Source of the DNA: an uncultured Candidatus Saccharibacteria bacterium
GTDB taxonomy: Bacteria > Patescibacteriota > Saccharimonadia > Saccharimonadales > Saccharimonadaceae
DNA: 64,000 nucleotides
NCBI GenBank assembly: GCA_964444615.1
Contig: CAYUHY010000002.1
Location: 4,469-68,468, forward strand
Reading direction: 5' to 3'
This document shows positions 2,100-61,940 of this stretch, one piece after another; within the stretch, counting starts at the first letter, position 1, and every line of letters begins with the position of its first letter. The notes under the pieces were generated by a model, which was given only the letters and a program-made list of their open reading frames with translations, was not told the origin of the DNA and searched no databases. The translations under genes and the position numbers were made by a program.

Positions 2100-2585
2100 A
2101 TGGCAGGCAAGTTTTTCAATTCCAGCCTCGGTCAAATCCGTGGCAACGCTGCTCCAGATCTGTTGCAAATGATCAGCATCCTGGCCAGTGCGGATCCCCT
2201 GCTGCGGGAAGAGGCCATGGGAGAGGTCGACATTGCGGCCGGCGAGTGCATTTCGTTCAGTATCGACGAGGCGCGCCTGAGTGACAAGGAAACTTTCAAC
2301 GAGGCGAGCTACTTCTTCTGGTCGATCGTGGATGGTCGCACGACTCTTGCCAATATTCCGGCCCGCTGCGAGCGCAGCGTGACGATGATGCTGGCTCCGC
2401 CGGATCGGCTGTTGCGGCAGGAAGTGGAAAATCTCTACTACAGCGGCCAGGGCTTGGCGCAGGATGTGGCTCAGAAGCCGGAGTTTGCGCGGGAATTGCA
2501 TCAGTTCCTGACCAACCTGATCACTATCCAGGTGGTCCCGGCGAGTCAGTCGCCTTTCCGGCAGCTGCAGGAGGAGCGCTTCTAG
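2100..2585 (+). CDS. Hypothetical protein, orphan cassette A (161 aa), G+C-rich relative to flanks
   Basis: AGGAGG RBS lies 7 nt before ATG 2100 (the track ORF starts at an upstream TTG at 2082). It uses many C/G-ending codons. I recognise no family. It has its own promoter and terminator. Confidence 0.6.
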   Translation: MAGKFFNSSLGQIRGNAAPDLLQMISILASADPLLREEAMGEVDIAAGECISFSIDEARLSDKETFNEASYFFWSIVDGRTTLANIPARCERSVTMMLAPPDRLLRQEVENLYYSGQGLAQDVAQKPEFARELHQFLTNLITIQVVPASQSPFRQLQEERF

Positions 2586-2712
2586 TCGATATCTAGGCTG
2601 TAAAGGCCGGGGCTGATCCGCTCTCTGCGAAAGACTAGGGGGATTCCTGCGGATCGCCAATCCCTGAGCGTAAAGAGATAAAAAACGCTGAACCTATTTC
2701 CTCATTATTTAT

Positions 2713-2745
2713 ATGCCCGGGCTTTTGCTCGGGCATTTTTCTTGT
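2713..2745 (+). terminator. Rho-independent terminator of orphan A
   Basis: ATGCCCGGG-CTTTTG-CTCGGGCAT stem (9 bp including one G-U) followed by TTTTTCTTGTT. Confidence 0.7.
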
Positions 2746-2867
2746 TATTTTTGGACTTTGTTAGCTATCTTGCTTACGCAAAGTGCCTTGGTTTAAAAGG
2801 GCTTAGACCTGAAGAATTTCCGCTAGATATCGCTGCGAGATTGGCTGAACGCGCTTGTGAGAATGGT

Positions 2868-2971
2868 TAGATGTGGCGGAAGGACCGGTGGACTAGACAT
2901 GGCGGACGGAACGGTGGGCTAGACGTTGCAGTTGAATTGATTGATTAGACGTGGCGGACTTTTTTGCGGGT
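2868..2971. repeat. Four tandem copies, exact 26-bp period, of the TAGACRTGGCGGA word
   Basis: Copies start at 2868, 2894, 2920 and 2946. The last copy is the 3' end of the FemAB gene (encodes ...KKVRHV-stop on the - strand). The other three lie downstream of its stop and are progressively degenerate. Confidence 0.7.
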
Positions 2972-3985
2972 AGCCTCAACGGCATAATCCAGAGCATATT
3001 TGGCTTTATTTAAGATTAGATCGTGCGCCGGGATATGGCGAAGCTCATCCACACCAAAACCGCGTTTGAACCGCGAAACGCCATAAAAACGATGATGGAT
3101 ATCATCTTCGTCCACGATACCCCAGAGATTATAGCGTTCGATTCCCCGCTTCCGGGCATCACGCATTGCTTCCATATGCAAAAGTGGCGCACCCGAATAC
3201 TTCGTGCCTAGTTCCGAGGAGACGCCATAATGATAAGAAGCCTCATTGCCGTAAAAAATCATAAAATTCTGCGCAAGTGTCTCCCCATTGAGTTTGGCCG
3301 TATAGAGGACGGCTTCGTCATGCGGCGCAAAAGCCGCAAATTGCTTGGTAAGAAAATCCTCAGAAAATGCCACGAAGCGATGTCGGCCAGCGGTTTGCAG
3401 CTCGATTTCATAAAATTCGTGAATGTCTTCCGGATTGGTGCTTTTTTCAATTGTAATGCCATTTTTATCGGCTTTGCGCAAGGCACGGCGGAGGCGCTGA
3501 CGCATATCTGTCATGATTTCTTCTTCACTTTTTGTCAAGTCGAGAATCCCGGCATATTCTACCGAGAGTGGCATCGGGGATTTCTTGAGGCCCAATTCTT
3601 GCATCAAATTCAGGCCATAATCCGAGAGTTCGAGCTGTGGCCGTACGCGCACAAACACACATTTGTGTTTCTTACCCTCTGCTTTAATGTCGGCAAAAAC
3701 CGCTTCTACTAATGCACGGTTTTGCCAATCCAAGATCGGACCACCGGCAATCGCCATGTAGCGTCCTCGCTTAGCATTTTCGACTACACCGGCGTAAGCA
3801 CCGACGATTTCGCCATCTTGCCAGGCTAGGCGCCGCACCACCGCGTTGCCGCGGCTGCGATGAAATTCATAAAAATCCCAGGACTGCAAAAAATTCGCTT
3901 CGGGATGCGAGTTAATAAACTGATCCCACTGCGCCTTATCGTCGGCATCAGTAATTTTATAAACTGTTTCAGTTGAATTTGTCAT
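2945..3985 (-). CDS. FemAB-family peptidoglycan interpeptide-bridge aminoacyltransferase (FemX-like)
   Basis: 346 aa. It has the N-terminal FLQSWDFYEFHRSRG motif typical of FemAB/FemX, and the C-terminal LWGI...RFKRGFG region. GGAGA RBS. Confidence 0.75.
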   Translation of the reverse strand: MTNSTETVYKITDADDKAQWDQFINSHPEANFLQSWDFYEFHRSRGNAVVRRLAWQDGEIVGAYAGVVENAKRGRYMAIAGGPILDWQNRALVEAVFADIKAEGKKHKCVFVRVRPQLELSDYGLNLMQELGLKKSPMPLSVEYAGILDLTKSEEEIMTDMRQRLRRALRKADKNGITIEKSTNPEDIHEFYEIELQTAGRHRFVAFSEDFLTKQFAAFAPHDEAVLYTAKLNGETLAQNFMIFYGNEASYHYGVSSELGTKYSGAPLLHMEAMRDARKRGIERYNLWGIVDEDDIHHRFYGVSRFKRGFGVDELRHIPAHDLILNKAKYALDYAVEATRKKVRHV

Positions 3986-4009
3986 ATTTTCTCCACTTTA
4001 CAAATCTTA

Positions 4010-5296: not shown

Positions 5297-6470
5297 ACTC
5301 CTTTACTATCTCATAGGCTTGCGTCAATTTTGCGGCGGGATACCAAGTGGGAAAATTGATAATTTCGCGAGCAATTTTGACGGTTTCGGAGCAGGTAGTG
5401 GCGGGAAAATTGACCTCGGCTTGGTAGCGGGCGGGAGAGACTGGCGTGTCGTACCAGATTTCGTTAAAATAATAGCCATTTTGTGCTAGCTGCTGGAGTA
5501 AGTCATTGCGGCGGGAGACCAGGCGATAATCGCGCAACGGAGTTTGTGGCAAATGTTTTAATTGGTCTAAAGCTAATTTGGCTTGCCAGTGGGTGAGGCG
5601 ATGGTCGAGGTTTAGCTCAGCGTCGGCCGAGCGCTGAACAAAATGGATCTTCACCAGCGCACCCATCAGAAATTTGCCAATGCCAATCCGCCAGCAAGCG
5701 CGAGCAATACTACCAAATACAGGATACCAACGGTCCCGAAGACGGTCGCGAAGTGTCGGCTTTCGGGTGGGGAGTGGCGGCATCGTGCCATCCCGTAAGA
5801 TCAGCGCACCACCGGAAATCGTGTCGATGGCTTTGCCCTTGCCGAATGATAACGCCGCCGCCGCTCCCACCGTGCCGACTTCGCGACCGTCATCGTAAAA
5901 CCGACCGGCACAATGCGCCAAATCTTCAACGATCAGGGCATGGTGCTTTTGAGCGATTTTTTCGATCTTTTTTACATTCCAAGAGATCCCGAGCGTGTTC
6001 TGCACGAGGATTATACTTCCATTATAGCACACTTTGTCATTTTTGTCAATAGATAGGGTGGTTTTGGTAGCGTTTTTCCCTGTTCTTTCTAGTTTCTTGG
6101 CTGTTTTTGCAGCACTAGCCAAATCTGTTAAAGTCTGCTCCAGCTTCTCATAATTATAGGCAAGATCTTCCCGCCGAATATCTACGAAGACCGGTCGGCA
6201 GCCGGCCGCTTTAACTGCTCGCACCACTGCAATGCAGGTTAATCCCGGGATAATGACATTTTTCCCGCCCTCAGGCGCTACCGCCAGCAAAGCCGCCGCA
6301 AGAGCAGAACGCCCAGTATGATAGAGTGCGACTTGCGTTTTGGGTACATGATAACGCTTGCCCAGAGCGGCGCGAAGGCGATCGGAATCTTTTTGGCCAC
6401 CCCAAGCAAAAAGTTGCCGCCAAACCTGGCTAGCAGAATAGTTAGAAGCTTGACCAAGAGTTACGACCAT
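5280..6470 (-). CDS. DegT/DnrJ/EryC1/StrS-family PLP-dependent aminotransferase
   Basis: 396 aa. Motifs GRSALAAALLA, IPGLTCIAVVRAV and SFGKGKAI (candidate PLP lysine). The start overlaps the upstream stop (TAATG), and the stop overlaps the downstream start by 17 nt. Confidence 0.65.
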   Translation of the reverse strand: MVVTLGQASNYSASQVWRQLFAWGGQKDSDRLRAALGKRYHVPKTQVALYHTGRSALAAALLAVAPEGGKNVIIPGLTCIAVVRAVKAAGCRPVFVDIRREDLAYNYEKLEQTLTDLASAAKTAKKLERTGKNATKTTLSIDKNDKVCYNGSIILVQNTLGISWNVKKIEKIAQKHHALIVEDLAHCAGRFYDDGREVGTVGAAAALSFGKGKAIDTISGGALILRDGTMPPLPTRKPTLRDRLRDRWYPVFGSIARACWRIGIGKFLMGALVKIHFVQRSADAELNLDHRLTHWQAKLALDQLKHLPQTPLRDYRLVSRRNDLLQQLAQNGYYFNEIWYDTPVSPARYQAEVNFPATTCSETVKIAREIINFPTWYPAAKLTQAYEIVKEYEKDA

Positions 6471-11069: not shown

Positions 11070-11786
11070 TCATTTTCCGAGCCCAGCGTCAAGGTAACGC
11101 TTGACATAGTCCCAGCCCCAGCTATTATCAAAACCGGAAGTAGTAAAACGTCCAAACTTAAAGGTTGGCATTCCATCGGCAAAGCGAGAAGCTTTCTCGG
11201 TGTTAGCTATAATCTCGTCGACCGTTTCATGATTAGCAATGCACTGATCGAAACGCTCACCTAATCCCACTTCATGACCAATTTTTTGCCAATAATCATC
11301 TGGCATAGATTTAATTGGTGTAGCGGTCTTGCTGGAGCCAATACCCTTGGAATGATAATCTTCCCATAGGCTAGTGATGGCGGCATGATAATATTCCCAG
11401 AATTTATCTTCATGCATGGCGCAATAGGTAGCTTCGGCAGCGTCGCGCGAGGCCGCAATCTGATTGCCCTCGTACAGAGTGTCGGTCAAGCGAACTTCGA
11501 AGAGAATATCATTTTCTGCAAGGTAGGTCTTAAATTCATCCCAATGCTCCAGGACCAAGCGCGAGAACACATCGCAATAAGGACACATCAGATCAGTGTA
11601 CATAATATAGGCATTTTTAGCCTGCATGTCTCCGACCGTGGTCGCCTCGTTCCAGACTTGGTCGCCGGCGGCAGGCCGAGAAGTTAGGCTCACTACAATT
11701 AGAGATACAAACGCAATTACTACACCTACGATTGCAATGGTGCGCCAAATCCTCGCCTTACTGTTTTTCTGCTCGTATTCTTCCAT
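11070..11786 (-). CDS. DsbA/thioredoxin-fold thiol:disulfide oxidoreductase, membrane-anchored
   Basis: 238 aa with an N-terminal TM helix and a CPYC active-site motif (YTDLMCPYCDVF). Confidence 0.65.
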   Translation of the reverse strand: MEEYEQKNSKARIWRTIAIVGVVIAFVSLIVVSLTSRPAAGDQVWNEATTVGDMQAKNAYIMYTDLMCPYCDVFSRLVLEHWDEFKTYLAENDILFEVRLTDTLYEGNQIAASRDAAEATYCAMHEDKFWEYYHAAITSLWEDYHSKGIGSSKTATPIKSMPDDYWQKIGHEVGLGERFDQCIANHETVDEIIANTEKASRFADGMPTFKFGRFTTSGFDNSWGWDYVKRYLDAGLGK

Positions 11787-12446
11787 TTATTCCTCTTTCT
11801 TAGCCCGATGCCGTTTATTATAATTTTCGCTCAATGCCATGACGTAAGTCTCTTTGCCGATGCGTTTCAGCGTAAACAGAGCCAGCAAAACAGCACCAAT
11901 CGTGAGAACGCCAGAAATTACACCGGCCAACATATAGCTACTAGAGCTAAAAACTGCACCCAAAACCGGCATCAGTAAAGTAGTGCCGCAAGTGGGGCAG
12001 CCCGACCCTAGTACTGCGAGCCCTGCGACTAACCCAGCGCTTTGTAAATTGTCGGCGTTTTGCATGCCAGCTAGGAGATTCTCGCGACGGTTTTTGCGTT
12101 TTTTCTGCCAAACCAAGACTACCAGGCCAATCAAAACGCTTTGCAGTAAAGTAATCAAAAAGAGCGGCAGCCAATCCCAAAAACTGCGCCCCACACCGAA
12201 AATTCCCAAAAAACTATCACCAATAATCCGGAGTTTCCCCGGCAAATCAGTAGCCCAGAATAAATTCAAAGCCGCAGTGCTGCTAGCCAAAAGACTCATC
12301 AAAGTGCCAAAGATAACAAAGGTGATCAGCATGACCGCCAAAAACTTACCACTACGCGTAGCTAATGCGATCCCCGACAGAGCCATTTTCCATTCATCCA
12401 GCCAGCGGTCCAAGCGTGCACCGATTTTTTTGCCTCCATGTGTCAT
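11787..12446 (-). CDS. Polytopic membrane protein with CPTC motif (possible redox partner of the adjacent DsbA-like protein)
   Basis: 219 aa. GSGCPTCG lies at a helix boundary. Its stop abuts the DsbA-like start (TAAATG). ATG 12446 lies 6 nt after TGTGTTATAAT. Confidence 0.5.
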   Translation of the reverse strand: MTHGGKKIGARLDRWLDEWKMALSGIALATRSGKFLAVMLITFVIFGTLMSLLASSTAALNLFWATDLPGKLRIIGDSFLGIFGVGRSFWDWLPLFLITLLQSVLIGLVVLVWQKKRKNRRENLLAGMQNADNLQSAGLVAGLAVLGSGCPTCGTTLLMPVLGAVFSSSSYMLAGVISGVLTIGAVLLALFTLKRIGKETYVMALSENYNKRHRAKKEE

Positions 12447-12770
12447 GGACTAATTATAACACAGCTGAAATGATTCTGGCTGATTTCTTAATGTTTTGGC
12501 CAGATTTTTCTGAGATGTTTGGAAATTAGTTATAGAAGAAATAGTAGCGGGTGGATTATTGACAAGAGGGATAGCGATAAACGTATTATTGGCAGAAGAC
12601 TTTGCAAACAAAAACTTTGCTTCACGCAGTCATAGCTACCCTACATATTTCTATTGTATCACACATTGTGATTTTTGTCAATAGGCTAGTGTTCGGTTTT
12701 TGGAATTTTACAGAGGTAGTTGTGTAAAACTTCATTTTATTTTTGTGCATATTTTAGCAAAAAATCAATA

Positions 12771-12798
12771 TTGACGACAAACACGAGCGTGATATAAT
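12771..12798 (+). promoter_or_regulatory. Promoter of a candidate small RNA
   Basis: TTGACG (12771-12776), 16-nt spacer, TGATATAAT (-10 hexamer 12793-12798). Confidence 0.5.
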
Positions 12799-22499: not shown

Positions 22500-22506
22500 G
22501 TTAAAT

Positions 22507-22535
22507 ATTATAATCAGAAAATTCCCCTATGTCAA
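22507..22535 (-). promoter_or_regulatory. Promoter of the ABC exporter (leaderless)
   Basis: On the - strand: TTGACA, 17 nt, TATAAT. ATG 22499 follows 7 nt after the -10. Confidence 0.6.
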
Positions 22536-22588
22536 TGAAGTTATAGAAAACAGGAAGTCTATCCAGAAAAGACCTTCTCTAGGTATAA

Positions 22589-22609
22589 ATGTTGTAAAAA
22601 TTACAACAT
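22589..22609. repeat. Palindrome family copy P2
   Basis: ATGTTGTAAAAATTACAACAT lies in the divergent promoter region between the ABC exporter and orphan B. Confidence 0.9.
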
Positions 22610-22646
22610 TTTAATTGACAATATAGCCAGATTAAGCATAAAAGTA

Positions 22647-22675
22647 TTGACTTTTTCGCTAATCTGTGATACAAT
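22647..22675 (+). promoter_or_regulatory. Promoter of orphan gene B
   Basis: TTGACT, 17 nt, TGTGATACAAT. It implies a ~136-nt 5' UTR. Confidence 0.6.
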
Positions 22676-22732
22676 AGAGATATATAGGTAAAACTATATC
22701 GTACTTTATGAGATTGATTTACTTCTGAGGTT

Positions 22733-22781
22733 GTTTCTGCCCTAATTGTTTATCTAAAGGGTGGATAATTAGGGCGGAAAC
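22733..22781 (+). promoter_or_regulatory. 15-bp stem hairpin in the 5' UTR of orphan B
   Basis: GTTTCTGCCCTAATT ... AATTAGGGCGGAAAC (one G-U) with a 19-nt loop containing GTGGAT. It lies 37 nt upstream of the ATG. Confidence 0.6.
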
Positions 22782-22817
22782 AGCGAAATTCGCCGAATAT
22801 TTGAAAGGAGGGAGCTT

Positions 22818-23750
22818 ATGAGCTTCCAGAGAGAACTTGCAGAAAAACTCAGCGTAAAAACCGGCTGCAAAATTACCGAGGAGCATATCCACTCCGACAA
22901 TCCCGGCTATCACTATTATATTCGGGATTTGCAGTCCGAGCATCCCCTGTTCCTCATCCACTACCGGACGGTGCCGATGTGCATCCTGCCCGACGCCGAC
23001 TTCCAGCGGCTCAGCATTGGTCAGATCACGCCTGAAGATTACATTGATCAGGCACGGTGGTCTTACGGCCGCTACTGGGGTGGCGGGTCTTTGCTGGGTG
23101 GTATCTACTGGCAGCCGTTGGAAGATACGCGCGGCATTCATGACACCGCTACGATCAGTCGCTACCTGCAGATTCTGATGTGCAGAACCCTTGCGCATTC
23201 CTCCGGCTATCGCCCGACTACCACTGTTTGCTGTAACTGCAAGCTGGACTCTACTACCTGCCCGCTCTCGGCAATGAACTTGACTGGAGATTGGGCTACT
23301 GAGATCCAGGAGCCGGACGCTCGCGTGGAATTGCTCAAAGTTTTGCAGCACTGGCTGGACGTGGAGTATGGGTTCGAGAAGGTGTATACCGTCCTGACCC
23401 ACCGCGGCAAGATCAACGAAGTGCACTTGATGCCTCCCGCCAATCGGTCCGAAGATTGCGTCACCTTAGTCATCAGCACGGCCTTGCATAACGCCATGCT
23501 CGATAAGACGATTGACGTGCGCGTTTTGGATCAGCTGGTGCGCAGCTTCAAGTTTAAGACGGGTCAGGGCTTCCCCAAAACCACTGCACTGGCGGAAATT
23601 CCGTCCGATGTGGTAGACCCGCACCAGTTCTGCCTGGACTGCTGGGGTTTCTCGGAGGATGAAGACTTGACGTGCACTGACGAGGATAGCCAGGCAAATG
23701 ATGATAACCATCCGTTGTTCGGCTGGCTGCATCGCTTGGTGAAGAAGTAA
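22818..23750 (+). CDS. Hypothetical protein, orphan cassette B (310 aa), G+C-rich, Cys-containing
   Basis: GGAGGGAG RBS. CCNCKLDSTTC and FCLDCWGF cysteine clusters. Acidic tail. I recognise no family. Confidence 0.6.
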   Translation: MSFQRELAEKLSVKTGCKITEEHIHSDNPGYHYYIRDLQSEHPLFLIHYRTVPMCILPDADFQRLSIGQITPEDYIDQARWSYGRYWGGGSLLGGIYWQPLEDTRGIHDTATISRYLQILMCRTLAHSSGYRPTTTVCCNCKLDSTTCPLSAMNLTGDWATEIQEPDARVELLKVLQHWLDVEYGFEKVYTVLTHRGKINEVHLMPPANRSEDCVTLVISTALHNAMLDKTIDVRVLDQLVRSFKFKTGQGFPKTTALAEIPSDVVDPHQFCLDCWGFSEDEDLTCTDEDSQANDDNHPLFGWLHRLVKK

Positions 23751-23762
23751 TCAACTCAGACG

Positions 23763-23796
23763 ACCGCCGGTATTCAAACCGGCGGTTTTCTTTTTC
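23763..23796 (+). terminator. Terminator of orphan B (also sits just past the convergent glyQS stop)
   Basis: ACCGCCGGT-ATTCAA-ACCGGCGGT followed by TTTTCTTTTT. Confidence 0.75.
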
Positions 23797-23813
23797 CTTG
23801 AAATTTTCTCTTA

Positions 23814-31807: not shown

Positions 31808-31836
31808 TTGACTTTTGTTGATACATGTGCTATAAT
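31808..31836 (+). promoter_or_regulatory. Promoter of orphan gene C
   Basis: TTGACT, 17 nt, TGTGCTATAAT. It implies a ~150-nt 5' UTR. Confidence 0.65.
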
Positions 31837-31995: not shown

Positions 31996-33066
31996 ATGAA
32001 AAAGCGCGTCATTTCCCTGCTCCTCGCAATCGTTATGTTGGTTAGCATAATGATTACACCGGCCGCCGCTGTGGCAAACCAAAGAGGCACCTATCATGCT
32101 TCGATTCCAGCATTGGACTGGTCTGGTGAGATCCACCCGGCCTACGACAACCGCGAGGATGCAAACAACGACATGACCACGATTTACGTCAGCGAAGATG
32201 ATCTGCCCGTCAAAGTCAGACTGAACGGAGAAAACTACCACAGCACCTTTGAGCTCGACAAGTATGACATTTACTACCTCAGAGTGGCGGATGAAGATGA
32301 TGGACGCTTTGTAGCTGATTTATTCTTATTCGTTTCGATTATTGGCATTCCACTCATCTTCTGCGACCCTCCCTATGCTTACGCTACGGTTAAGATTGCT
32401 CCGCCCGAAGACAATACCATGAACAACAATAAGAAGGCCCTTCATAGTGCGCCCGCCTCTACTGCTGCGCCTGAAGCCAAACCTGCTACCAACAACTCTA
32501 GTACTGACACCTCTTCTCCCGCTCCTACTCCTGTTTCTTTAGAAGATCGTTATAAAACTGTTATAAAAGTCTTGGATCTTCCCTTTAGTCACGCTGAATA
32601 TACACCTTATGGCAAAGAACTGAAGGAATTTTTTACTGGCGATGGATGGGATGGTTCTAACCGCAGCGACATCGATCCTAGCGACGGTTATGCCGGATAT
32701 ATTGCCAACCGCAGTATTGATTGTCGTACTTACCGTTTACATGTCACTAACCTACACAATGGTAAAACGTTTGAGCGTACTACCAATGTGGACTATCTTG
32801 GTAATCTTGAGACAGTACCGGGAGTGACACCCGCGCAAGATTATACTTTAGTGGTTGATCGTCAGAACGGCATTATTGAGGAATGGTCACTCTTACAGAA
32901 ACGCGATGCTTGGAACTTAGACCTGCAGGGAGCGACGATTAGTGATGTCTTTCCGCTTGCCTGCGGCGATGATGACGATTCCCGCGTCATGGTTAACATT
33001 GATGATGCTACAGGCCAGCATATCTGGTCGTTGCTCAAGGATGGCAAAATTGCCAAATTGACCTAA
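31996..33066 (+). CDS. Secreted hypothetical protein, orphan cassette C (356 aa)
   Basis: AGGAGG RBS lies 9 nt before ATG 31996. Signal peptide MKKRVISLLLAIVMLVSIMITPAAAVA. Central Ala/Pro/Thr/Ser linker. The first 57 track codons are promoter and UTR. Confidence 0.6.
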   Translation: MKKRVISLLLAIVMLVSIMITPAAAVANQRGTYHASIPALDWSGEIHPAYDNREDANNDMTTIYVSEDDLPVKVRLNGENYHSTFELDKYDIYYLRVADEDDGRFVADLFLFVSIIGIPLIFCDPPYAYATVKIAPPEDNTMNNNKKALHSAPASTAAPEAKPATNNSSTDTSSPAPTPVSLEDRYKTVIKVLDLPFSHAEYTPYGKELKEFFTGDGWDGSNRSDIDPSDGYAGYIANRSIDCRTYRLHVTNLHNGKTFERTTNVDYLGNLETVPGVTPAQDYTLVVDRQNGIIEEWSLLQKRDAWNLDLQGATISDVFPLACGDDDDSRVMVNIDDATGQHIWSLLKDGKIAKLT

Positions 33067-33112: not shown

Positions 33113-33140
33113 TAGCTCCGGCTTCGGCCGGAGCTTTTTA
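33113..33140 (+). terminator. Terminator of orphan C
   Basis: AGCTCCGGC-TTCG-GCCGGAGCT followed by TTTTAT. Confidence 0.75.
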
Positions 33141-33252
33141 TGGCCAAAAATTTATGGACCATTACTGCACTCCTATCCAGAGGCGGGATGAATCATTGTT
33201 CTATATCTAGAGACGAGGCTGAGCGATTGCGACACCTTTATTAGAAGCGGGG

Positions 33253-38175: not shown

Positions 38176-38204
38176 GGCAAAGACCCGCCACAAAGGGCGG
38201 GTCT
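38176..38204 (-). terminator. Terminator of orphan D
   Basis: AGACCCGCC-loop-GGCGGGTCT followed by TTTG on the - strand. Confidence 0.6.
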
Positions 38205-38271: not shown

Positions 38272-38889
38272 TTATCCGATCTGGTCGTCATCAGGTGAGT
38301 GGTTTTCCGATTCAGAGCTGGGCCGGATGTAGCCTTTGAGGTCGAGTTCTTTCCACTCGAGACCATCACTGCAGGTGCAATGGGACCGCTTTGCATTTCT
38401 GAAGGCGTCTGCGGTGATGACCGCTTTGGCCTTGTTTCTGCAGGGGCAGTTCTCCAGCACCCAAGGGCACTGAATGTCAACCACCTTGCGGCAGCGTTCC
38501 ATTTGCTCATCCGCCTGCTGCTGAGCCAGGTACTCGTGGAGATTTTCGCCGGCCGTTGCAGCCGCAAAAAGGGTCAGGTAGAGTGCCAGATTGAATCCCA
38601 CCAAGATTATGGGGAATGCGAACACGACGGCTGCAGCTTCAGATTCGCCGTCAGAAAGGAACCGCTGCGCCACGTCAAGGATGCCGAGATGGCTCTCGAA
38701 AATAGCCATCAAGGTAATCAGAGTGACGGTCACAATAGCGATACCAGACCAGGCAGCCTTGTGGTGTGCCCAGCTAGTGACGCGGACGCGGCAACGAACG
38801 CGGCGGACCGAGGTCCAGCCGACCATGAATGCTACCAAGATAGCCAGTACGCTAATCACCGGCCACCAATTCCAATTCCAGTTTGTCAT
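38272..38889 (-). CDS. Hypothetical membrane protein with Cys-rich cytoplasmic tail, orphan cassette D (205 aa)
   Basis: AAGGGGGA RBS. N-terminal WNWNWW motif and about 4 hydrophobic helices. The C-terminal region has CRKVVDIQCPWVLENCPCRN...HCTC. Confidence 0.6.
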   Translation of the reverse strand: MTNWNWNWWPVISVLAILVAFMVGWTSVRRVRCRVRVTSWAHHKAAWSGIAIVTVTLITLMAIFESHLGILDVAQRFLSDGESEAAAVVFAFPIILVGFNLALYLTLFAAATAGENLHEYLAQQQADEQMERCRKVVDIQCPWVLENCPCRNKAKAVITADAFRNAKRSHCTCSDGLEWKELDLKGYIRPSSESENHSPDDDQIG

Positions 38890-38944: not shown

Positions 38945-38973
38945 ATTGTAGCACACTTTGCCTAAAAAGTCAA
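38945..38973 (-). promoter_or_regulatory. Promoter of orphan D
   Basis: TTGACT, 17 nt, TGTGCTACAAT on the - strand, starting 12 nt after the trxB stop. Confidence 0.65.
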
Positions 38974-49573: not shown

Positions 49574-49598
49574 GGAAAAGCGCCCCGAGATGGGGCGC
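49574..49598 (-). terminator. Terminator of the 84-aa membrane protein gene
   Basis: GCGCCCC-ATCTC-GGGGCGC followed by TTTTCC on the - strand. Confidence 0.7.
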
Positions 49599-49679: not shown

Positions 49680-49934
49680 TTATGGGCGGCGGTGATGGCC
49701 GAAAAGACCGGCAAGCAGGCGGTAGAGCGCCCAGGTGATCAGCACAATAAAGACTAAGCCGACGAACATCACCAGCCAAGTTACGAAGAAAGTGAGGAAG
49801 ATGCCGATGGCAATAATGATACTACCGACCGCGCGCAGGAGTGGGCGCAGTGAGAACCCCACAAAGAGGCTCAAGATCCAGGCTACGACGCCGATCAACA
49901 GGAAAAGCTGTGCATTTTGAGACATGATAGACAT
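49680..49934 (-). CDS. Small polytopic membrane protein (84 aa), self-contained cassette
   Basis: Three hydrophobic helices. TTGACA-N17-TGTGCTATAAT promoter at ~50022-50050, ~85-nt leader, and AGGGGAAGG RBS. Confidence 0.55.
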   Translation of the reverse strand: MSIMSQNAQLFLLIGVVAWILSLFVGFSLRPLLRAVGSIIIAIGIFLTFFVTWLVMFVGLVFIVLITWALYRLLAGLFGHHRRP

Positions 49935-50111
49935 GATTTTCCTTCCCCTTTCACATCCAAATTCTAAGGTACGGTTCTGGGTATCGCTTAGAGATTCCTT
50001 GATAGATACCCTATCTATTCATTATAGCACAGATAGGTAATTTTGTCAATAAGATTTTTAGGTTAACAGAGGTGAAGGATGGGATTGGGTGCAGCTTTTT
50101 GATTTATAAAC

Positions 50112-50374
50112 CTGATAGAGCGCCTAAAAATTTGACTTATTTACTGAAGTTTGTTATGATGGAGACATATGAGTTTAGTTGTTGTCTTCGACGTAGTCGA
50201 GGACAACTTTTATTTTGCGAACGGTTTTGGTAGCATGTACCTCTTCCGTCTGTTCAATAATTACTCTGCCCATATGAGCTCCTTTCAAACTAGTTTTTAA
50301 CTACTAGATTAAGGTTTTTTGATATTAAATATCGACCTTGAATATAGTTACAGTCAATTCTAGGCGCTCTATAG
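50112..50374. repeat. ~260-bp segment bounded by an imperfect ~22-bp inverted repeat (MITE-like or long-range RNA stem)
   Basis: Left arm CTGATAGAGCGCCTAAAAATTTGAC (50112-50136). Right arm GTCAATTCTAGGCGCTCTATAG (50353-50374). The perfect 12-bp core is ATAGAGCGCCTA. Confidence 0.5.
50175..50273 (-). CDS. Candidate 32-aa hydrophilic peptide (MGRVIIEQTEEVHATKTVRKIKVVLDYVEDNN)
   Basis: AAAGGAG RBS lies 5-6 nt before ATG 50273. It is below the ORF-track size cutoff and sits inside the inverted-repeat-bounded segment. Confidence 0.35.
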   Translation of the reverse strand: MGRVIIEQTEEVHATKTVRKIKVVLDYVEDNN

Positions 50375-50694: not shown

Positions 50695-53001
50695 TTAGGA
50701 ATCGCGGGCGATACACCGCACAGCGTATCCGCGGTAACGGCTGCTGCCGACTGTACCAGGGCCGACGCCGCCACTGAGTATGTACAGGTGGTATGCGTAG
50801 TCAGCATTGTACGCCGTACTAGACCACCAGTATCCGTCGCTAGTACCGTAGCCGAGGGAGCCATCGAGGACGTACCCGGTATACTTGAAATTGTAAATGA
50901 CTTTACTATTAGAATCTGTTGCATTCTGAACAATATTTAGATCTCCTGAACCCCAGTTGGTGTATTCATTAAGACCTGGTTTGAGGCTGGTGTTACTAAT
51001 GGTAAGACCCATATTACGGAATAACTTATAATAATCAGACCAGGTATTCTCTGTATTTACATTACTTTGGCGACCACCAGTAGGCAATTTCCAACCTTTA
51101 GGACAGATAGAAGAAGGAGCTTGACTATTAGCGGCTATGGCGTTTGATGAATCTGTGCCTCCAGTACCAGCTGTAGCAGCGTTCCAAGAATAATAACCAG
51201 TTTCTCCAGCATTAGAACTAGAAGCTATATAAGATTGTACAGCATAATACCCTTTGTCTGCTGAGAAGTCTCTATTTCCGGAAGAAGTATTAAGTGAAGT
51301 GAGGGTATTGGTTGGTTTTACGACAGTGCTTAGGGAACTTTGATTCCAGTCGGCACCTTGGTTGAGGTCAGTATCATCCTTACTTAGGCCAGCGGTGGTG
51401 AGTTTGAGTTTGAGGTTACTTGTCATCCAGCATCTACCGTCTCCAAGTTTTCTTACAGTATAAGATTTTCCATCTCTCGTGTCCTGGAGAGTATATTCGG
51501 CACTATATTTTTGGCCAGAGATAAAGGGAGTTTTCTCGCAGACGCGGGGAGTCATTTCTTGCATGGTGGTAATCTCAGAAAGATCAGGATCCCGCATCAC
51601 GCACCGCACAGCGTAACCGACGTAACGGGCGCCGCTGACTGTACCAGGGTCGACGTAGCTACTGATTACGCGCAGGTTGTACGCGTAGCTAGCATCGTTC
51701 GCCGTACTAGACCACCAGTAGCCGCTGCTAGTACCGTCGAGGGAGCCATCGTAGACGTGTCCGGTATATTTAAAGTTGTAAGGAGTAGCTTGGATCTTGG
51801 TAGAGCCGGCAGTATCACTGGTAATTGATGCAGTAGTGGCAAAGGCTTCATATTCTCCACTACTACTACCGGATGGTAGTTTCCAGCCTTTTGGGCAAAT
51901 GGAAGACGGAGCTTGACTGTTGGTAGCTATCACATCTGAATGGCTTGTACCACCAGTACCAGCTGTAGCGGCATTCCAAGAGTAGTAACCGGTTTCTCCT
52001 GCGCTAGAACTAGATACTATGTAGGATTCTACTTTATATGGAATTCCGTTAAAGGTTCCATCGCCACTGGAGACAGAAGTGAATGTATTGGTAGGTTTTA
52101 CGACGGTACTTGGAGAACTTTGGTTCCAGTCCAAGCCTTGGTTAAGGTCGGTGTCATCTTTACTGAGGCCGGCAGTGGTGAGTTTGAGCTTAAGGTTGTC
52201 GGTCATCCAGCATTTACCATCGGCAAACTTTCTAATATTATAGACGTTATCGTCGCGGGAATCTTTGAGCGGGTAGGCATCACTGTAAGTTTGATTAGTA
52301 AGATATGGGGTTTCTTCACAATATTCGGGGTGAGTAGCTAAATCTTGCATGGTGTTAGCTTTTTCTAGGCCAATAAGTTTTCTGGGTGTGGCGACCATGC
52401 TGAGTTGTACGCCAGTTTTGTAATGTCCAGAATTGTTGTTATTCTCGGCAAACTTGGCGGCAAAAACGATGCGTTTAGTAGTAGAATCTAAGGTATTATT
52501 AGCACTTTCTGGTAAAGTTACATTTTCTAATCTTCCAGTGCTCAAACCACTACCGTTAGTACCATAAGTTGGTACAGTATAATAAGTAAGTCCAGCATTA
52601 GTAGTGTCATTATTAGTAGTATTATTAGTCCAGGCAAAACCCCAAGAGTTATTTGCTAAATTAGATCCACTTGTGCCATTAGCTCCTGTTAATGTAGTAG
52701 TACCTCCATCTAACTTCAGACTACTATATCCATTAGCATATGATACTTGTAATGTATAACTATCTATATCGCTAGCAGAATAAGTAACATTACTACTAAG
52801 ATATGCAGTATCGCCAGGCGCTACGGTAGCAGAAAGAGTAGGGTTGCTGACACTGAGTGAAGCGGTAGGACTGATAGCAGCGTAACATTTATTACCGAGT
52901 AACGAAAAGAACAAGGTGCAGATGCTACACAATGGGACAACAAGTCTTAAATATCGATAGCGCGATATACTTAAGAATTTATATTGATAATTGTGTAGCA
53001 T
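50695..53001 (-). CDS. Secreted surface protein with two tandem FISUMP (Fibrobacter succinogenes major paralogous)/C-type-lectin-like domains; DGR target
   Basis: 768 aa. AAAGGAGGG RBS and signal-like N-terminus. Each repeat has CWMT(D/S)NLKLKL ... ICPKGWKLP ... GYWWSST ... GYAVRC(V/I). The two repeats are clearly paralogous. Confidence 0.8.
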   Translation of the reverse strand: MLHNYQYKFLSISRYRYLRLVVPLCSICTLFFSLLGNKCYAAISPTASLSVSNPTLSATVAPGDTAYLSSNVTYSASDIDSYTLQVSYANGYSSLKLDGGTTTLTGANGTSGSNLANNSWGFAWTNNTTNNDTTNAGLTYYTVPTYGTNGSGLSTGRLENVTLPESANNTLDSTTKRIVFAAKFAENNNNSGHYKTGVQLSMVATPRKLIGLEKANTMQDLATHPEYCEETPYLTNQTYSDAYPLKDSRDDNVYNIRKFADGKCWMTDNLKLKLTTAGLSKDDTDLNQGLDWNQSSPSTVVKPTNTFTSVSSGDGTFNGIPYKVESYIVSSSSAGETGYYSWNAATAGTGGTSHSDVIATNSQAPSSICPKGWKLPSGSSSGEYEAFATTASITSDTAGSTKIQATPYNFKYTGHVYDGSLDGTSSGYWWSSTANDASYAYNLRVISSYVDPGTVSGARYVGYAVRCVMRDPDLSEITTMQEMTPRVCEKTPFISGQKYSAEYTLQDTRDGKSYTVRKLGDGRCWMTSNLKLKLTTAGLSKDDTDLNQGADWNQSSLSTVVKPTNTLTSLNTSSGNRDFSADKGYYAVQSYIASSSNAGETGYYSWNAATAGTGGTDSSNAIAANSQAPSSICPKGWKLPTGGRQSNVNTENTWSDYYKLFRNMGLTISNTSLKPGLNEYTNWGSGDLNIVQNATDSNSKVIYNFKYTGYVLDGSLGYGTSDGYWWSSTAYNADYAYHLYILSGGVGPGTVGSSRYRGYAVRCIARDS
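50705..50884 (-). repeat. DGR variable repeat VR1 (C-terminal 60 codons of the target)
   Basis: Ungapped 180-bp match to 53462-53641. By hand count there are ~30 mismatches, ~23 of them at template A (coding strand). Confidence 0.75.
51602..51768 (-). repeat. DGR variable repeat VR2 (end of the first FISUMP domain)
   Basis: Match to the same template. By hand count there are ~26 mismatches plus one 3-nt indel, ~20 of them at template A. Confidence 0.7.
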
Positions 53002-53028
53002 CGAGCCCTCCTTTTGTAGGTTTTTTGA

Positions 53029-53084
53029 GATCTTCGCCCTAAGTAATCTAAAAATCCACTAAAAGATTACTAGGGCGGAAGATC
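53029..53084 (-). promoter_or_regulatory. ~20-bp stem hairpin in the 5' UTR of the DGR target gene
   Basis: On the - strand: GATCTTCCGCCCTAGTAATCT - loop containing GTGGAT - AGATTACTTAGGGCGAAGATC. It lies ~27 nt upstream of the ATG. Confidence 0.6.
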
Positions 53085-53230
53085 ATTTTGTATATATACC
53101 GGGGTATCATTCTTGTATGTAAGTAAAATATCATAAATACACATCAGCGGAGATTGTATAATATGGTATTTTTTGTATAAGTAATCGAGGAGTTTCTCTA
53201 TAGTAGATAGACAACTACTCCAAATACAAA

Positions 53231-53373
53231 AATGGCACCACTAGGGTGCACAATAAACTAATCGGACGAGACTATACTCAACAGATGGCTTATTCCCCTT
53301 GCGGTGCCATTTATACTGTTCAATATAGTAGTCCAGGCGATGTCTTGTCTTTATTAACTAATTTATTGTGCAC
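53231..53373 (-). other. Interleaved inverted repeats (pseudoknot-capable or alternative pairing) followed by a U-run, 3' of the TR
   Basis: On the - strand the order is A (53356-53373), B (53301-53311), A' (53246-53263), B' (53231-53241). A/A' is 17 bp with one mismatch. B/B' is AATGGCACCGC/GTGGTGCCATT. TTTTTGTATTT follows B'. Confidence 0.5.
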
Positions 53374-53461
53374 TCTTATTATATCACAAATTTAGGCTTG
53401 GCTAGATAAAAAATATTGATAAGTTTTGCACAGGTAGAAAAGAAAAATCTAGAATCGGAAC

Positions 53462-53641
53462 CGGGCGATACACCGCACAGCGAATCCGTTGTAACGGTTG
53501 TTGTTGTTTGTACCAGGGCGGACGTTGCTACTGTTTATGTTCAGGTTGTATGCGTTGTTAGCATCGTTCGCCGTACTAGACCACCAGTAGCCGTTGCTAG
53601 TACCATTGTTGAGGGAGCCATCGCCGACGTTCCCGGTATAC
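53462..53641 (-). repeat. DGR template repeat (TR), non-coding
   Basis: The - strand reads YTGNVGDGSLNNGTSNGYWWSSTANDANNAYNLNINSSNVRPGTNNNNRYNGFAVRCIAR, with ~15 AAC codons. There is an in-frame TAG 13 codons upstream with no start codon between, and a TAG 4 codons after. Confidence 0.75.
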
Positions 53642-56109: not shown

Positions 56110-56136
56110 TAGAAACCCCTCAGCAGAGCTGAGGGG
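56110..56136 (-). terminator. Terminator of orphan E
   Basis: CCCCTCAG-CTCTG-CTGAGGGG followed by TTTCT on the - strand. Confidence 0.7.
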
Positions 56137-56255: not shown

Positions 56256-57044
56256 TCAGAGTACCACGGAGCCGCAGTCGGCTTCTTCGGCGATGCAGAT
56301 CAGATCTTCGAGGCAATTGACATCATAGGCATTGAGGCCAAAGCTCTCGCAGATAATCTGGCTGCCATCACCGCTGAGATAGTACACGGTCAAGTCATTA
56401 TCCTCCAGGTAGGCGGTCCACCCCAGCTGATCGCGGGCATAGAGAGCCAGCGTCATCAATTCGTGACGGTACTGCTCAGCATATTCTTCGGCATCAGCCG
56501 CACAGAGGGCGTTCAGGGTCAGGTCCAACTGATGCTCTTCCTCAAGCTCGTCAAACAGAGCGCGCAGCTCCGGCGTCAGGGACGCGGCATACAGGCTAGA
56601 GCCACTATTCTCAGTCGTGAAGGTGCCGAGACTTTTCCAGTTATGCTTTGCAGCATAGTCGATACTGCGGCGAAGGTCCTGGGTGTTAGCCACAAAGAAT
56701 TGCAGCAGCGCGTCGGTAGCTTCAGCCGGAGTGGTAAGCGTGACGCACTCAGTCTTCTCGTCGTAGCGGCAAGCATAGACCGTCACCTGCTCGCACGGGA
56801 AGAGATCCAGAGCCCGCACCAGGCGGAGATCGGTGGCGTCGATGATAGCATGAGGCCAGGCTACGGCGCCACTATAGTATACCGGCAGGACAGGCGAAAA
56901 AGCGATTTTCAGGGGGAAATCGTCGCTAAGAGGGCCGCAGAAATTGCCATCCGGAGCAACTGTGATGTCGCCACTGACGTTGTAGCGAGCCTCCAGCAAG
57001 GTTACCTTCCTCATCCGAGGAGCAATAATTTTGCGATAGTCCAT
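56256..57044 (-). CDS. Hypothetical protein, orphan cassette E (262 aa), G+C-rich, acidic
   Basis: AAGGAGGA RBS. I recognise no family. C/G-ending codon usage is unlike the neighbours. Confidence 0.6.
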   Translation of the reverse strand: MDYRKIIAPRMRKVTLLEARYNVSGDITVAPDGNFCGPLSDDFPLKIAFSPVLPVYYSGAVAWPHAIIDATDLRLVRALDLFPCEQVTVYACRYDEKTECVTLTTPAEATDALLQFFVANTQDLRRSIDYAAKHNWKSLGTFTTENSGSSLYAASLTPELRALFDELEEEHQLDLTLNALCAADAEEYAEQYRHELMTLALYARDQLGWTAYLEDNDLTVYYLSGDGSQIICESFGLNAYDVNCLEDLICIAEEADCGSVVL

Positions 57045-57081
57045 AGTGTCCTCCTTAGTTTTATTCTGCCTTTTCCGTTGT

Positions 57082-57171
57082 AATCGGCAGTATTATATTG
57101 ACAAATTGGTGATTTGGTAGGTTTGTGGCGTGGATTGGGTTCGTAGCGTTGTCAATATGATATTGCCGATT
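57082..57171 (-). promoter_or_regulatory. ~23-bp imperfect inverted repeat in the orphan E leader, immediately upstream of its RBS
   Basis: AATCGGCAGTATTATATTGACAA (57082-57104) pairs with TTGTCAATATGATATTGCCGATT (57149-57171). Confidence 0.55.
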
Positions 57172-57199
57172 AGCTCGGGGCATAAGGATGGAGTTGGCT

Positions 57200-57325
57200 G
57201 TGGTGACTGAAAATAGGGAGGGTATTTGACTGTATCAGGTAGAAATTTGACTATATGGGCTGGAAATAGGGAGGGATCTGATCGTATTAGCTGGAAATAA
57301 GGGGATTTGACCATATGGGCTGGGA
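57200..57325. repeat. Degenerate ~30-bp tandem repeats inside the orphan E leader
   Basis: GCTGGAAATAGGGAGGGAT...TTGACNATATGG-like units recur about 4 times. Confidence 0.6.
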
Positions 57326-57376
57326 TTTTACTTTTACCATTAAAAAACTTGGGGAGAAAAAACACCCCATATCTTC

Positions 57377-57405
57377 ATTATAGCACACTTTATGTAAAAA
57401 GTCAA
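57377..57405 (-). promoter_or_regulatory. Promoter of orphan E (implies ~325-nt leader)
   Basis: TTGACT, 17 nt, TGTGCTATAAT on the - strand. An ATG 6 nt after the -10 opens a 27-codon uORF. Confidence 0.6.
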
Positions 57406-60054: not shown

Positions 60055-60198
60055 TACCTCATTATAGCACGATTCGCTTGAGAGGAAAGGCAAAAATCAG
60101 AGATTTTACTTCTTAGCACCAAAGTGAACTCTAGTATTCCAACGGGCGACTGATTTAGGTCAAAAGAGGTGATTTTTTGCTACAATCGAGATTTATAT

Positions 60199-61428
60199 TT
60201 ATTTTTTGCGCCAATCGAGGCCACGTTTGTGACGGAGGTGAATCAAATAATAGCAGACCCCTAACTGTACGGCCAAGACTAATGCCGAAGCGCCCAACAT
60301 GGCGCCAATGCCAAAATCGTACATGCGCCCACAGATAAACATACCTAGCGCCTCGCCAAGATAAGAGATGACATTGCGAAAAGTGCCGTATTTGAGCTGG
60401 TGGCGATTATCAATAGCATTGATATAATAGCCGTCGCTGACATCCTCATAGGCGGTGGCGCTGAGCAGAGCCCAGATAAAGGCGATAAAGCATAGGAACA
60501 TATTATCCGTCAAGACGGCGACCGTAAAGGCGACCAAGCGCAGGCCGAATTTAAGCGTGATAGTAACGTAATCATTGCGCGGAGTGAAATATTTGAGGGC
60601 AAAAATACCAATCATATCCGCAATGAGCCCGACCACGAGCAGGCAGTTCGTAGCTACGCTAGGGGTAAAGTCAAAGATATTGGTAAGCACAAGCATTTTA
60701 AGGCCCACGGCAGCCTGGAACGAGACCGACGAGAGGAAGTTATAGACCATGTAGACCTGCTGGACGCGATTGCGCATGGCGATTTTGACGACCGGGAGAG
60801 GCTTGGCGGGCGAACGGCTTTGGGTGAGTTCGACCTCGAGCTGATACATGATAATAATAGAGACGACGAGAAAAGCGGCCGCCACCAGCAAACAGCCATT
60901 GTAGTCGAAGAGCCAGTTACCGAGATGGTGGCCAATTAGGACACCGCCAACCAAAATACCGAGGTCGCGGAAAAGATATTCCACGAGTTTGCGGCGGCTG
61001 TAGGCTTTATTGCTCTTCATTACCGTAGTAAGGAGCGGGTACAGGCTGGTAAAGATAATGTAAGCGGTAGCGACGTCAATGGATATACAGATAGTAATGA
61101 CCGCGGTGTTTCCCTCCATATTGAGGCAAAAAAGCGCGAGTAAGTTCAAAAATCGACCCATCAAGGCGACGGTGACGAGATTTTTGATTTGGGGCATTTT
61201 GATGAATTTGCCCACAATCACAATAGCACCCACGCCGATGAGCATGCTTAAGCTGAGAATATTACTGATTTGGGGCGCACTAAAGCCATTAGCTTCGAGC
61301 CAAAGCTGGCGGAAATTTTCCCAAAGCCCAGTAGAAATACTGACAAAAGCGATCATGGTCAAAATTTGGCGTTCCAAGCGCTTCCACTTTGGCGCGGGAG
61401 TACGATGCTGTTTCCATTTTTCGATCAT
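60199..61428 (-). CDS. MFS-type transporter
   Basis: About 12 hydrophobic helices. The first ATG (61437) lies only 1 nt from the TATAAT at 61439-61444, so ATG 61428 (10 nt after the -10) is preferred. This start choice is uncertain. Confidence 0.6.
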   Translation of the reverse strand: MIEKWKQHRTPAPKWKRLERQILTMIAFVSISTGLWENFRQLWLEANGFSAPQISNILSLSMLIGVGAIVIVGKFIKMPQIKNLVTVALMGRFLNLLALFCLNMEGNTAVITICISIDVATAYIIFTSLYPLLTTVMKSNKAYSRRKLVEYLFRDLGILVGGVLIGHHLGNWLFDYNGCLLVAAAFLVVSIIIMYQLEVELTQSRSPAKPLPVVKIAMRNRVQQVYMVYNFLSSVSFQAAVGLKMLVLTNIFDFTPSVATNCLLVVGLIADMIGIFALKYFTPRNDYVTITLKFGLRLVAFTVAVLTDNMFLCFIAFIWALLSATAYEDVSDGYYINAIDNRHQLKYGTFRNVISYLGEALGMFICGRMYDFGIGAMLGASALVLAVQLGVCYYLIHLRHKRGLDWRKK

Positions 61429-61637
61429 TTTGCCCATTATTATACTATTTTAACATAAAAAGAATCAAACACAAAAGTGAGTGAGTTGGCTTTGTTGCAT
61501 TTTTTATCAGAGACAGATGTTGCAAAAATCAATACAAATGGAATGGAATAGATAATTATGCAGCAATATCGAGAATCGTTTTGTATTTTTTTGCCAGATG
61601 GATATGCAGTAAAGGGCTTGTGAAGAGTGCAGTAAAA

Positions 61638-61658
61638 ATGTTGTAACAATTACAACAT
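61638..61658. repeat. Palindrome family copy P7 (ATGTTGTAACAATTACAACAT)
   Basis: Perfect 9-bp arms with loop CAA. It lies 60 nt downstream of the orphan F stop and upstream of the MFS promoter. Confidence 0.9.
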
Positions 61659-61718
61659 TTTATGAAATGGTTAGGGCGGCCAAATTGGTCGCCCCTAGAG
61701 TCATGGTGGTCGCTCGCG

Positions 61719-61940
61719 CTACGGCTGCTGGTATTTGTAATCTTCAGAAAAACAATCTTCCAGCAAGGCGGCTATTTCGGCCCGGGTACGACGTCTGATA
61801 ATCGGCCGGCATTCTCGTGGCGGAAAATTCCACGGCTCAAAAACGCTGGGTAAGTCCTGAGGGTAAACCCCGTAGAATTCCATTACGCTCATGTCTTCGC
61901 GCAAAGGCAATCCCGAGGGCGCATACTGCAGTTTCTGCAT
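61719..61940 (-). CDS. Hypothetical small protein, orphan cassette F (73 aa)
   Basis: AAAGGAG RBS lies 8 nt before ATG 61940. TGCTATAAT -10 at 61973-61981, right after the alaS stop. G+C-rich. Confidence 0.5.
   Translation of the reverse strand: MQKLQYAPSGLPLREDMSVMEFYGVYPQDLPSVFEPWNFPPRECRPIIRRRTRAEIAALLEDCFSEDYKYQQP

Follow-up and report, generated by a model that had tools for sequence, protein, structure and literature searches.

How did seven genes of no recognised protein family come to stand, each by itself, between the housekeeping genes of a chromosome of Saccharibacteria, very small bacteria living on other bacteria? The window, by which we mean the whole stretch of DNA analysed, comprises 64,000 nucleotides (nt) of an uncultured Candidatus Saccharibacteria bacterium (GenBank assembly GCA_964444615.1, contig CAYUHY010000002.1, positions 4,469 to 68,468 of the forward strand), and the genes in question are cassettes A, B, C, D, E and F together with M84, the gene of an 84-amino-acid (84-aa) membrane protein. 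An initial annotation proposed that all seven were acquired in the manner of phage morons, possibly from a donor of higher G+C content such as a host bacterium, and that they could serve in host interaction or immunity. We believe instead that the seven cassettes do not form a single class of acquisitions. The reading towards which we lean, with slightly more confidence than doubt, is that they are single-gene accessory transcription units placed between the operons of a syntenic Saccharibacteria backbone, at junctions resembling minimal mobile elements. Such a unit would have a promoter and a terminator of its own, with a long leader and a Shine-Dalgarno site before the gene, and would be set among first-in-operon housekeeping genes that are often leaderless. 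Three kinds would be represented: C, D, E, F and M84 would be lineage-restricted genes that keep their positions while diverging extremely fast or being replaced allele by allele; B would belong to one mobile family of promoter-to-terminator single-gene cassettes; and A would be one species-specific ORFan insertion.

The setting is a cellular chromosome with a reduced-looking housekeeping set (short alaS and metG, glyS, hisS, pheST, uvrA, pcrA, trxB, S10 and L27, from the map of open reading frames, ORFs, and NCBIfam). Overall G+C content is 46.5%, and no tRNA or Rfam RNA lies within the window. The sequencing runs that hold the window sequence, found by a search of DNA runs, are rat gut and faeces metagenomes.

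Cassette junctions in related genomes

The relatives compared include 80 species-level loci recruited via PcrA, all but one of them from Saccharibacteria (L-numbers denote fetched loci). A full-length homolog of C, 30% identical, occupies the rpmA-uvrA junction of L002, L005 and L007; in L001, L004 and L006 small unrelated ORFs stand there instead, and in L003 the junction is empty. The ExoI-trxB junction is similarly variable. At the ExoI-trxB junction, L002 and L003 encode membrane proteins of 247 and 169 aa that are collinear with D and 24-26% identical to it, one of them with the CRK..C..CxCP..DAFR tail of D. Homologs of E lie directly after pcrA or directly before the G5-domain gene in L087, L093, L027 and L029, with 25% identity to the L087 copy (tblastn) and 24-29% to cluster representatives; PcrA in L087 is 82% identical. 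M84 has homologs of 26-33% identity in the ksgA-metG interval of L009 and L012 and, by phmmer, immediately ahead of metG in L087 and L093, and homologs of F (39-70% identity) directly follow alaS in L087, L010 and L008. The proteins flanking these positional homologs are 55-94% identical. The femX-hyp211 junction, where A stands in the window, is empty in L097 and L098 (75 and 129 bp), the E junction is empty in L009 and L014, and that of F is empty in L031.

Occupancy was counted only in genomes that retain both anchor genes, at four junctions with 21-29 genomes each, and all four have variable content between specific conserved flanks:

alaS-hyp412: F family 3, other ORFs 10, empty 8
pcrA-G5 gene: E family 3, other ORFs 10, empty 16
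ksgA-metG: M84 family 2, other ORFs 19, empty 3
hyp412-pcrA: cassette family none, other ORFs 5, empty 16

Orthologs at the same positions across the lineage had been named in advance as an outcome that would speak against acquisition, and the relatives supply this in part, since C, D, E, F and M84 have same-junction homologs in related Saccharibacteria. As a description, the initial annotation is largely correct for five of the seven cassettes. Its idea of acquisition holds in spirit for A, whose junction is empty in two relatives, and for B, which belongs to a mobile family, and is wrong for the other five.

A separate observation concerns UvrA (33253-36132), which is 93-94% identical to its counterparts in L001-L007, while its neighbours TrxB, ExoI and a methyltransferase reach only 55-73%; this high identity reflects either unusually strong constraint or import by recombination.

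Architecture of the units

All seven ORFs were found at the coordinates first proposed, and their placement directly after conserved genes is likewise seen in the sequence. Their features are listed below, where GC3 is the G+C content at third codon positions, dN/dS the ratio of nonsynonymous to synonymous divergence, CDS the coding sequence and RBS the ribosome-binding site.

1994..2022, + strand: promoter of A, TTGACT-17-TGCTATCAT, extended -10
2100..2585, + strand: A CDS, 161 aa, GC3 0.753, perfect AGGAGG RBS, dN/dS 0.07 between strains
2713..2743, + strand: A terminator, hairpin and T-run
22647..22675, + strand: promoter of B
22737..22777, + strand: putative B leader hairpin, inside the 143-nt leader, read from sequence
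22818..23750, + strand: B CDS, 310 aa, GC3 0.704
23762..23795, + strand: B terminator
31808..31836, + strand: promoter of C
31996..33066, + strand: C CDS, 356 aa, GC3 0.482 (background), signal-peptide-like N-terminus
33114..33141, + strand: C terminator
38945..38973, - strand: promoter of D, beginning 12-13 nt past the trxB stop
38272..38889, - strand: D CDS, 205 aa, GC3 0.665, multi-pass membrane protein with Cys-rich tail
38178..38204, - strand: D downstream hairpin, weak T-run
50021..50049, - strand: promoter of M84
49680..49934, - strand: M84 CDS, small, almost wholly hydrophobic protein, GC3 0.694
49574..49598, - strand: M84 terminator
57377..57405, - strand: promoter of E, matching at 90% the promoter that precedes uvrA
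57045..57376, - strand: E leader, about 330 nt
56256..57044, - strand: E CDS, 262 aa, GC3 0.662
56111..56136, - strand: E terminator
61973..61984, - strand: -10 box of F, TGCTATAAT; a -35 region would overlap the alaS stop
61719..61940, - strand: F CDS, 73 aa, GC3 0.581 (not an outlier)
61634..61695, - strand: F hairpin, G+C-rich and without a T-run, then palindrome AATGTTGTAAnnnTTACAACATTTT

A near-consensus promoter of the form TTGAC-N-TGTGCTAYAAT lies 56-160 nt upstream of A, B, C, D and M84, as had been supposed of every cassette; that of E is 333 nt upstream, and F has the -10 box only. The strong GGAGG RBS, also ascribed to all, is present in A, B, C and E (perfect AGGAGG, thus a perfect Shine-Dalgarno site in four of the seven) and in F (AGGAG), but D and M84 have G-runs rather than GGAGG. 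Downstream hairpins were found for all seven, and by these motifs promoter and terminator would enclose a single gene, as in an autonomous unit. Between pcrA and E lies a 90-aa ORF, hyp90 (57093-57365, - strand), that contains two 29-nt repeats and differs by a 73-nt net indel between strains; because of that indel it is most likely the leader of E and not a gene.

The housekeeping genes around the cassettes are arranged differently. About 11 of those that come first in their operons (hyp219, RR220, msbA, HATP249, MTase378, uvrA, sbcB, metG, aggprom, hyp412 and alaS) lack a Shine-Dalgarno site and carry TATAAT only 5-9 nt ahead of the ATG, and to judge from this spacing they appear leaderless. 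The perfect AGGAGG of A, B, C and E recurs in the lineage-specific hyp211, h497, h322 and FISUMP768. Across the 80 related loci the consensus promoter precedes 13.1% of orphans as against 4.8% of core genes (p = 5e-5). Within the window the 50-nt promoter consensus is also found before uvrA, one more gene and two unannotated stretches, and once within a gene; the idea of a cassette-borne promoter was therefore rejected for the window, as the identical consensus drives non-cassette units and is a general strong promoter across the lineage.

Three copies of the consensus deserve mention in their own right. Two stand in intergenic regions of 722 and 760 nt with no annotated gene downstream (12770-12798 and 50132-50160, both + strand), and a perfect one (12 of 12 positions) lies inside an aminotransferase gene (6021-6049, - strand); their products may be small RNAs or small proteins, and the last may be an internal promoter.

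The A+T-rich 25-nt palindrome AATGTTGTAAnnnTTACAACATTTT that follows the F hairpin occurs seven times in the window, at 18207, 22588, 31749, 41891 (inside pheT), 45688, 47808 and 61637; five of the seven copies are exact, and none would be expected by chance. In related genomes its motif is found just after rpmA, alaS, pcrA or an F homolog. It may be a shared terminator, or a candidate site for DNA uptake or protein binding in a naturally competent lineage.

Base composition

In the 46 window genes that serve as compositional background, GC3 is 0.470 +/- 0.064 and nowhere exceeds 0.613. A (0.753), B (0.704), M84 (0.694), D (0.665) and E (0.662) exceed every one of them, F (0.581) falls inside the upper background range, and C (0.482) is at background. 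The G+C richness attributed to all the cassettes, computed gene by gene, is thus real for five, marginal for F and absent in C; the set as a whole differs from background with p = 1.8e-5 (Mann-Whitney). The five also favour C- and G-ending codons, as described at the outset (CTG 0.43 vs 0.14 in the background, ATC 0.62 vs 0.35, GGC 0.60 vs 0.42), and the main change is that fewer of their codons end in A (0.087 vs 0.193), with gains in both C and G. Because G+C at first and second codon positions (GC1, GC2) is near background, the shift sits at synonymous sites. The long antisense ORFs noted over the cassettes do exist, but as a by-product, since depletion of third-position A removes TTA, CTA and TCA and the antisense ORFs are not conserved.

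The excess also extends to the relatives. Homologs of E and M84 that are 25-33% identical keep a GC3 of 0.61-0.73 (0.545 in the L027 homolog of E) against backbones of 0.47-0.60, and the positional homologs of D are likewise raised. At such protein identity the composition of a donor relic should have decayed, which points to a maintained state. We infer that A, B, D, E and M84 keep their GC3 excess as a property of the genes themselves, through selection or biased gene conversion at synonymous sites, and do not owe it to a high-G+C donor. Among the intergenic regions of the window, those 3' of A, D, M84 and E have the highest G+C content (0.47-0.50 vs 0.389 overall).

A phylum-wide rule of G+C-rich orphans was considered and fails on average, holding only in the closer, lower-G+C relatives, where orphan GC3 is mostly about 0.5-0.75 whatever the backbone value (0.42-0.69). 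Unrelated small orphans with GC3 of 0.63-0.82 occur in L003 (13502-13843, 1024-1362), L087 (3301-5334) and L093 (5700-6044, 17016-17648), and the compositional class accordingly reaches beyond the seven cassettes. A bolder proposal, which we rate as improbable, is that the G+C-rich cassettes, most clearly the B family, are a distinct class of autonomous promoter-to-terminator single-gene units, found in Saccharibacteria and in other A+T-rich gut bacteria, whose synonymous sites are actively held G+C-rich. Were it true, the compositional offset would be a functional trait travelling with the cassette and not a donor relic, and the held sites could serve mRNA stability, controlled translation, or tuning to the translation machinery of a high-G+C partner.

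Families and predicted functions

None of the seven proteins has a Pfam, NCBIfam, PHROG or PADLOC match, in keeping with the original view that they belong to no recognised family; identity as a defence system was dropped for want of a PADLOC match. Large-database homolog searches covered A, B and E, while C, D, F and M84 were compared with family libraries and the fetched loci; within that scope there was no homolog from any named organism, whether actinobacterial or other (nine matches for B, five clusters for E, none for A).

B has nine homolog clusters in a large protein collection and 19 metagenome loci, with no homolog in viral contigs. The family comprises 12 distinct members, 30-79% identical, in 12 unrelated neighbourhoods that share no neighbour gene and are made up of ordinary chromosomal genes, such as those for a sortase, VanY, PBP5, thymidylate kinase and a Cys/Met enzyme dependent on pyridoxal phosphate (PLP). 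All 12 are 6-27 G+C points richer than the rest of their own locus, with GC3 up to 0.64 where the neighbours have 0.10-0.15; the B matches whose contigs were read lie on low-G+C contigs. In L116, L119 and L089, nucleotide identity of about 80% runs from the -35 box to some 50 nt past the terminator, while the flanks are unrelated. As identity is confined to the block from promoter to terminator, the moving unit of the B family would be the transcription unit, and on these alignments the family is demonstrably mobile. Its proteins share four invariant cysteines (Cys122, Cys138, Cys141 and Cys148 of B) and the motifs GYYWGGG and ExxExDxR. The AlphaFold2 model of B has a predicted local distance difference test (pLDDT) score of 80.5 and no significant fold match in PDB or BFVD (best fold E-value 0.29).

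Several further observations attach to B and its homologs. In the window B stands at a rearrangement breakpoint (20706-25157), where the mgsA-msbA block is inverted relative to L001, L004 and L006; glyS and B lie between msbA and recO in the window only, compared with the same three loci. On a contig of 30% G+C, L089 (987-1598; also L090-L092) has a Pfam-less 203-aa gene adjoining the B homolog, with GC3 of 0.44 vs about 0.15. L106 encodes a large serine recombinase (11332-12798) 2.4 kb downstream of its B homolog. A promoter-like direct repeat flanking the B unit was seen in the alignment of L119 and L089 but was too weak in A+T-rich DNA, and was not used.

The E family is rare, with five other clusters among 1.84 billion representatives, and has conserved motifs; two giant immunoglobulin (Ig)-repeat proteins that also matched E were discarded as repeat artefacts. 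The AlphaFold2 model of E (pLDDT 74.5) has no significant match in PDB (best fold E-value 0.033). A has no homologs beyond its own 90% cluster. By inspection of the sequences, hydrophobic or signal-like segments occur in C, D and M84 only, and not in A, B, E or F. Judged solely by sequence features and rapid turnover, the likely roles would be at the envelope or host interface for C (secreted), D and M84 (membrane), and in cytoplasmic conflict or adaptation for A, B, E and F.

Divergence between strains

A, B, D, E and F recur at unchanged positions on contigs from further rat samples, which permits a comparison between strains. The dN/dS ratio of the cassettes is 0.05-0.07, which marks them as protein-coding genes under purifying selection. 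Their synonymous divergence (dS) is 0.00-0.07 as against 0.10-0.18 in adjacent genes, or 2-5 times lower, and pooled mismatches are about threefold lower than in the flanks (35/3048 vs 395/12253, p = 1.4e-11). A and hyp211 share one low-divergence block. Backbone divergence is a mosaic, from 0.000 to 0.041 per site, as would be expected of recombination, of which such a pattern is typical. The most divergent parts are the intergenic regions 3' of the cassettes (0.063-0.079, with indels).

Two other loci show repeats of their own. At 50705-53641, a FISUMP-domain gene has internal repeats of 170-245 nt, with a third copy on the opposite strand in the region of the h134 ORF, and contigs from two runs join 51591 to 53462, skipping 1870 nt; this suggests variants of the surface protein locus that arose by repeat-mediated deletion. 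At 38027-38173, between the D terminator and the sbcB start, a 22-29-nt unit, GAGCGGTGGAAGTTTGGTGAGT, recurs in four to five imperfect copies arranged in tandem.

Alternative explanations

Recent acquisition of all cassettes from a higher-G+C donor, for example an actinobacterial host, with the G+C excess as an unameliorated signature, would account for the five GC3 outliers, for the G+C-rich 3' flanks, for the absence of A in relatives, for the mobility of B, and for the lower divergence between strains, which is what younger sequences should show. We nevertheless regard it as decidedly unlikely, and have given up the host donor of the initial annotation. In the large-database searches with A, B and E, the closest homologs do not come from Actinobacteria or another high-G+C taxon, and none belongs to a named organism; for C, D, E, F and M84, positional homologs exist in related Saccharibacteria; orthologs of E and M84 remain GC3-rich at 25-33% identity; B is richer in G+C than its host in all 12 genomes despite identities of 30-79%; GC1 and GC2 are near background; and for C, which is not G+C-rich, and for F the idea was already refuted. 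The report of McLean et al. of no strong Actinomyces-to-TM7x transfer (PMC7427843) also counts against it. Derivation from phage morons or prophage remnants has in its favour the moron architecture itself, with promoter, gene and terminator of deviant composition wedged between adjacent genes, but is very improbable given that the window holds cellular housekeeping genes only, that there are no PHROG matches (F and M84 having been examined against PHROGs only), that no relatives of A, B, C, D and E were found in 2.9 million viral contigs, and that the B model has no structural match in BFVD.

The composition might alternatively reflect very high expression, with C- and G-ending codons due to translational selection that also lowers synonymous divergence. 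The consensus promoters and perfect Shine-Dalgarno sites agree with this, as do the ratio NNC/(NNC+NNU) of 0.62 vs 0.35, the reduced dS and the stability of the excess across orthologs; yet two ribosomal protein genes have the opposite bias (GC3 0.39-0.41, NNC 0.25), G-ending codons rise as much as C-ending ones, and the non-coding 3' flanks are G+C-rich too, so that we consider this explanation unlikely. Least credible of all, to the point of being nearly negligible, is that the ORFs are spurious or that the real genes are antisense and the DNA dual-coding. Long antisense ORFs do cover A, D and E, and overlapping genes classically have reduced dS, but the sense frames have the low dN/dS given above, the B, C and E families have conserved sense-frame motifs and lengths, and promoter, RBS and terminator all fit the sense strand. 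Dual coding was rejected on two further grounds: antisense stop counts fit the depletion of third-position A (P 0.03-0.7), and the antisense ORFs are broken at varying places in the homologs.

Proposed turnover at the junctions

If the cassettes are accessory units at fixed junctions, as we favour, turnover would start with the uptake of related DNA, which would then undergo homologous recombination with the conserved flanks. This step draws on the natural competence of Saccharibacteria (PMC10633639) and on the definition of the minimal mobile element (PMC3787668); the mosaic divergence between strains lends it indirect support. Several points weigh against our reading. Exchange by recombination is itself inferred. 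The homology of D is weak, with E-values of 2e-3 and 5e-4 in single comparisons. The strain contigs were recruited via 90%-identity clusters of the cassette proteins, and this could make the cassettes look less diverged than they are. The G+C-rich 3' intergenic regions argue against pure codon selection and for a regional effect, and the same regions, being the most divergent between strains, argue against simple homogenisation. As an average over all 59 loci, orphans do not come out G+C-rich, the GC3 difference being +0.01 to +0.03. The organism was found in no metatranscriptome, the RNA runs being host-animal libraries, and three runs of unknown type gave patchy, low-depth contigs.

Relation to known systems

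The closest known kind is the minimal mobile element of Neisseria (PMC3787668), combined with a moron-like unit architecture. In both, conserved flank pairs enclose regions of variable content that are empty or hold unrelated genes or divergent alleles; there are no mobility genes, the lineage is naturally competent (PMC10633639), and most of the variable genes are without known function. Domain scans found no transposase or integrase in or next to the cassettes, and a repeat search, which recovered only the promoter and palindrome families, no terminal repeats. Composition differs from the flanks in A, B, D, E and M84, marginally in F and not in C. The cassettes depart from minimal mobile elements in that transformation and flank recombination are a presumed route for them, that the comparison is between species-level genomes rather than strains, that several look vertically kept but hyper-divergent, and that they share a GC3 excess.

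With phage morons the cassettes share the autonomous promoter-gene-terminator unit, the deviant composition and the position between genes that are adjacent elsewhere (in L097 and L098 for A, L003 for C, L009 and L014 for E, L031 for F). The carrier, however, is not a phage or prophage but a cellular chromosome, in which the neighbours are genes for aminoacyl-tRNA synthetases and ribosomal proteins, uvrA and pcrA, and no phage relatives were found. Integron cassettes, too, are single-gene units whose function is unknown and whose occurrence differs among relatives, but those of the window have their own promoters and are scattered singly, not arrayed; no integrase was seen among the cassette neighbours, and attC was not searched with a dedicated model. 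The ORFans of Patescibacteria, or candidate phyla radiation (CPR), resemble them as short, fast-evolving proteins without known domains in a narrow clade. Unlike such ORFans, the cassettes are tied to defined junctions, are Shine-Dalgarno-led beside leaderless neighbours, and keep a compositional offset.

Implications

What is new here is the Patescibacteria setting, the Shine-Dalgarno-led start of accessory genes as against the leaderless start of housekeeping genes, the two protein families and the maintained GC3 excess. The families, both uncharacterised, are that of B, with a confident predicted model, no known fold relative and four invariant cysteines, and that of E. The combination of a maintained GC3 excess, low synonymous divergence between strains and extreme divergence between species goes beyond standard amelioration. 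Saccharibacteria genomes are tiny and highly syntenic, and the question is how these bacteria adapt to their different hosts. Much of their gene-content variation resides in single-gene units at fixed junctions, which provides a list of candidate genes for host interaction and conflict, and natural transformation makes such junction genes testable.

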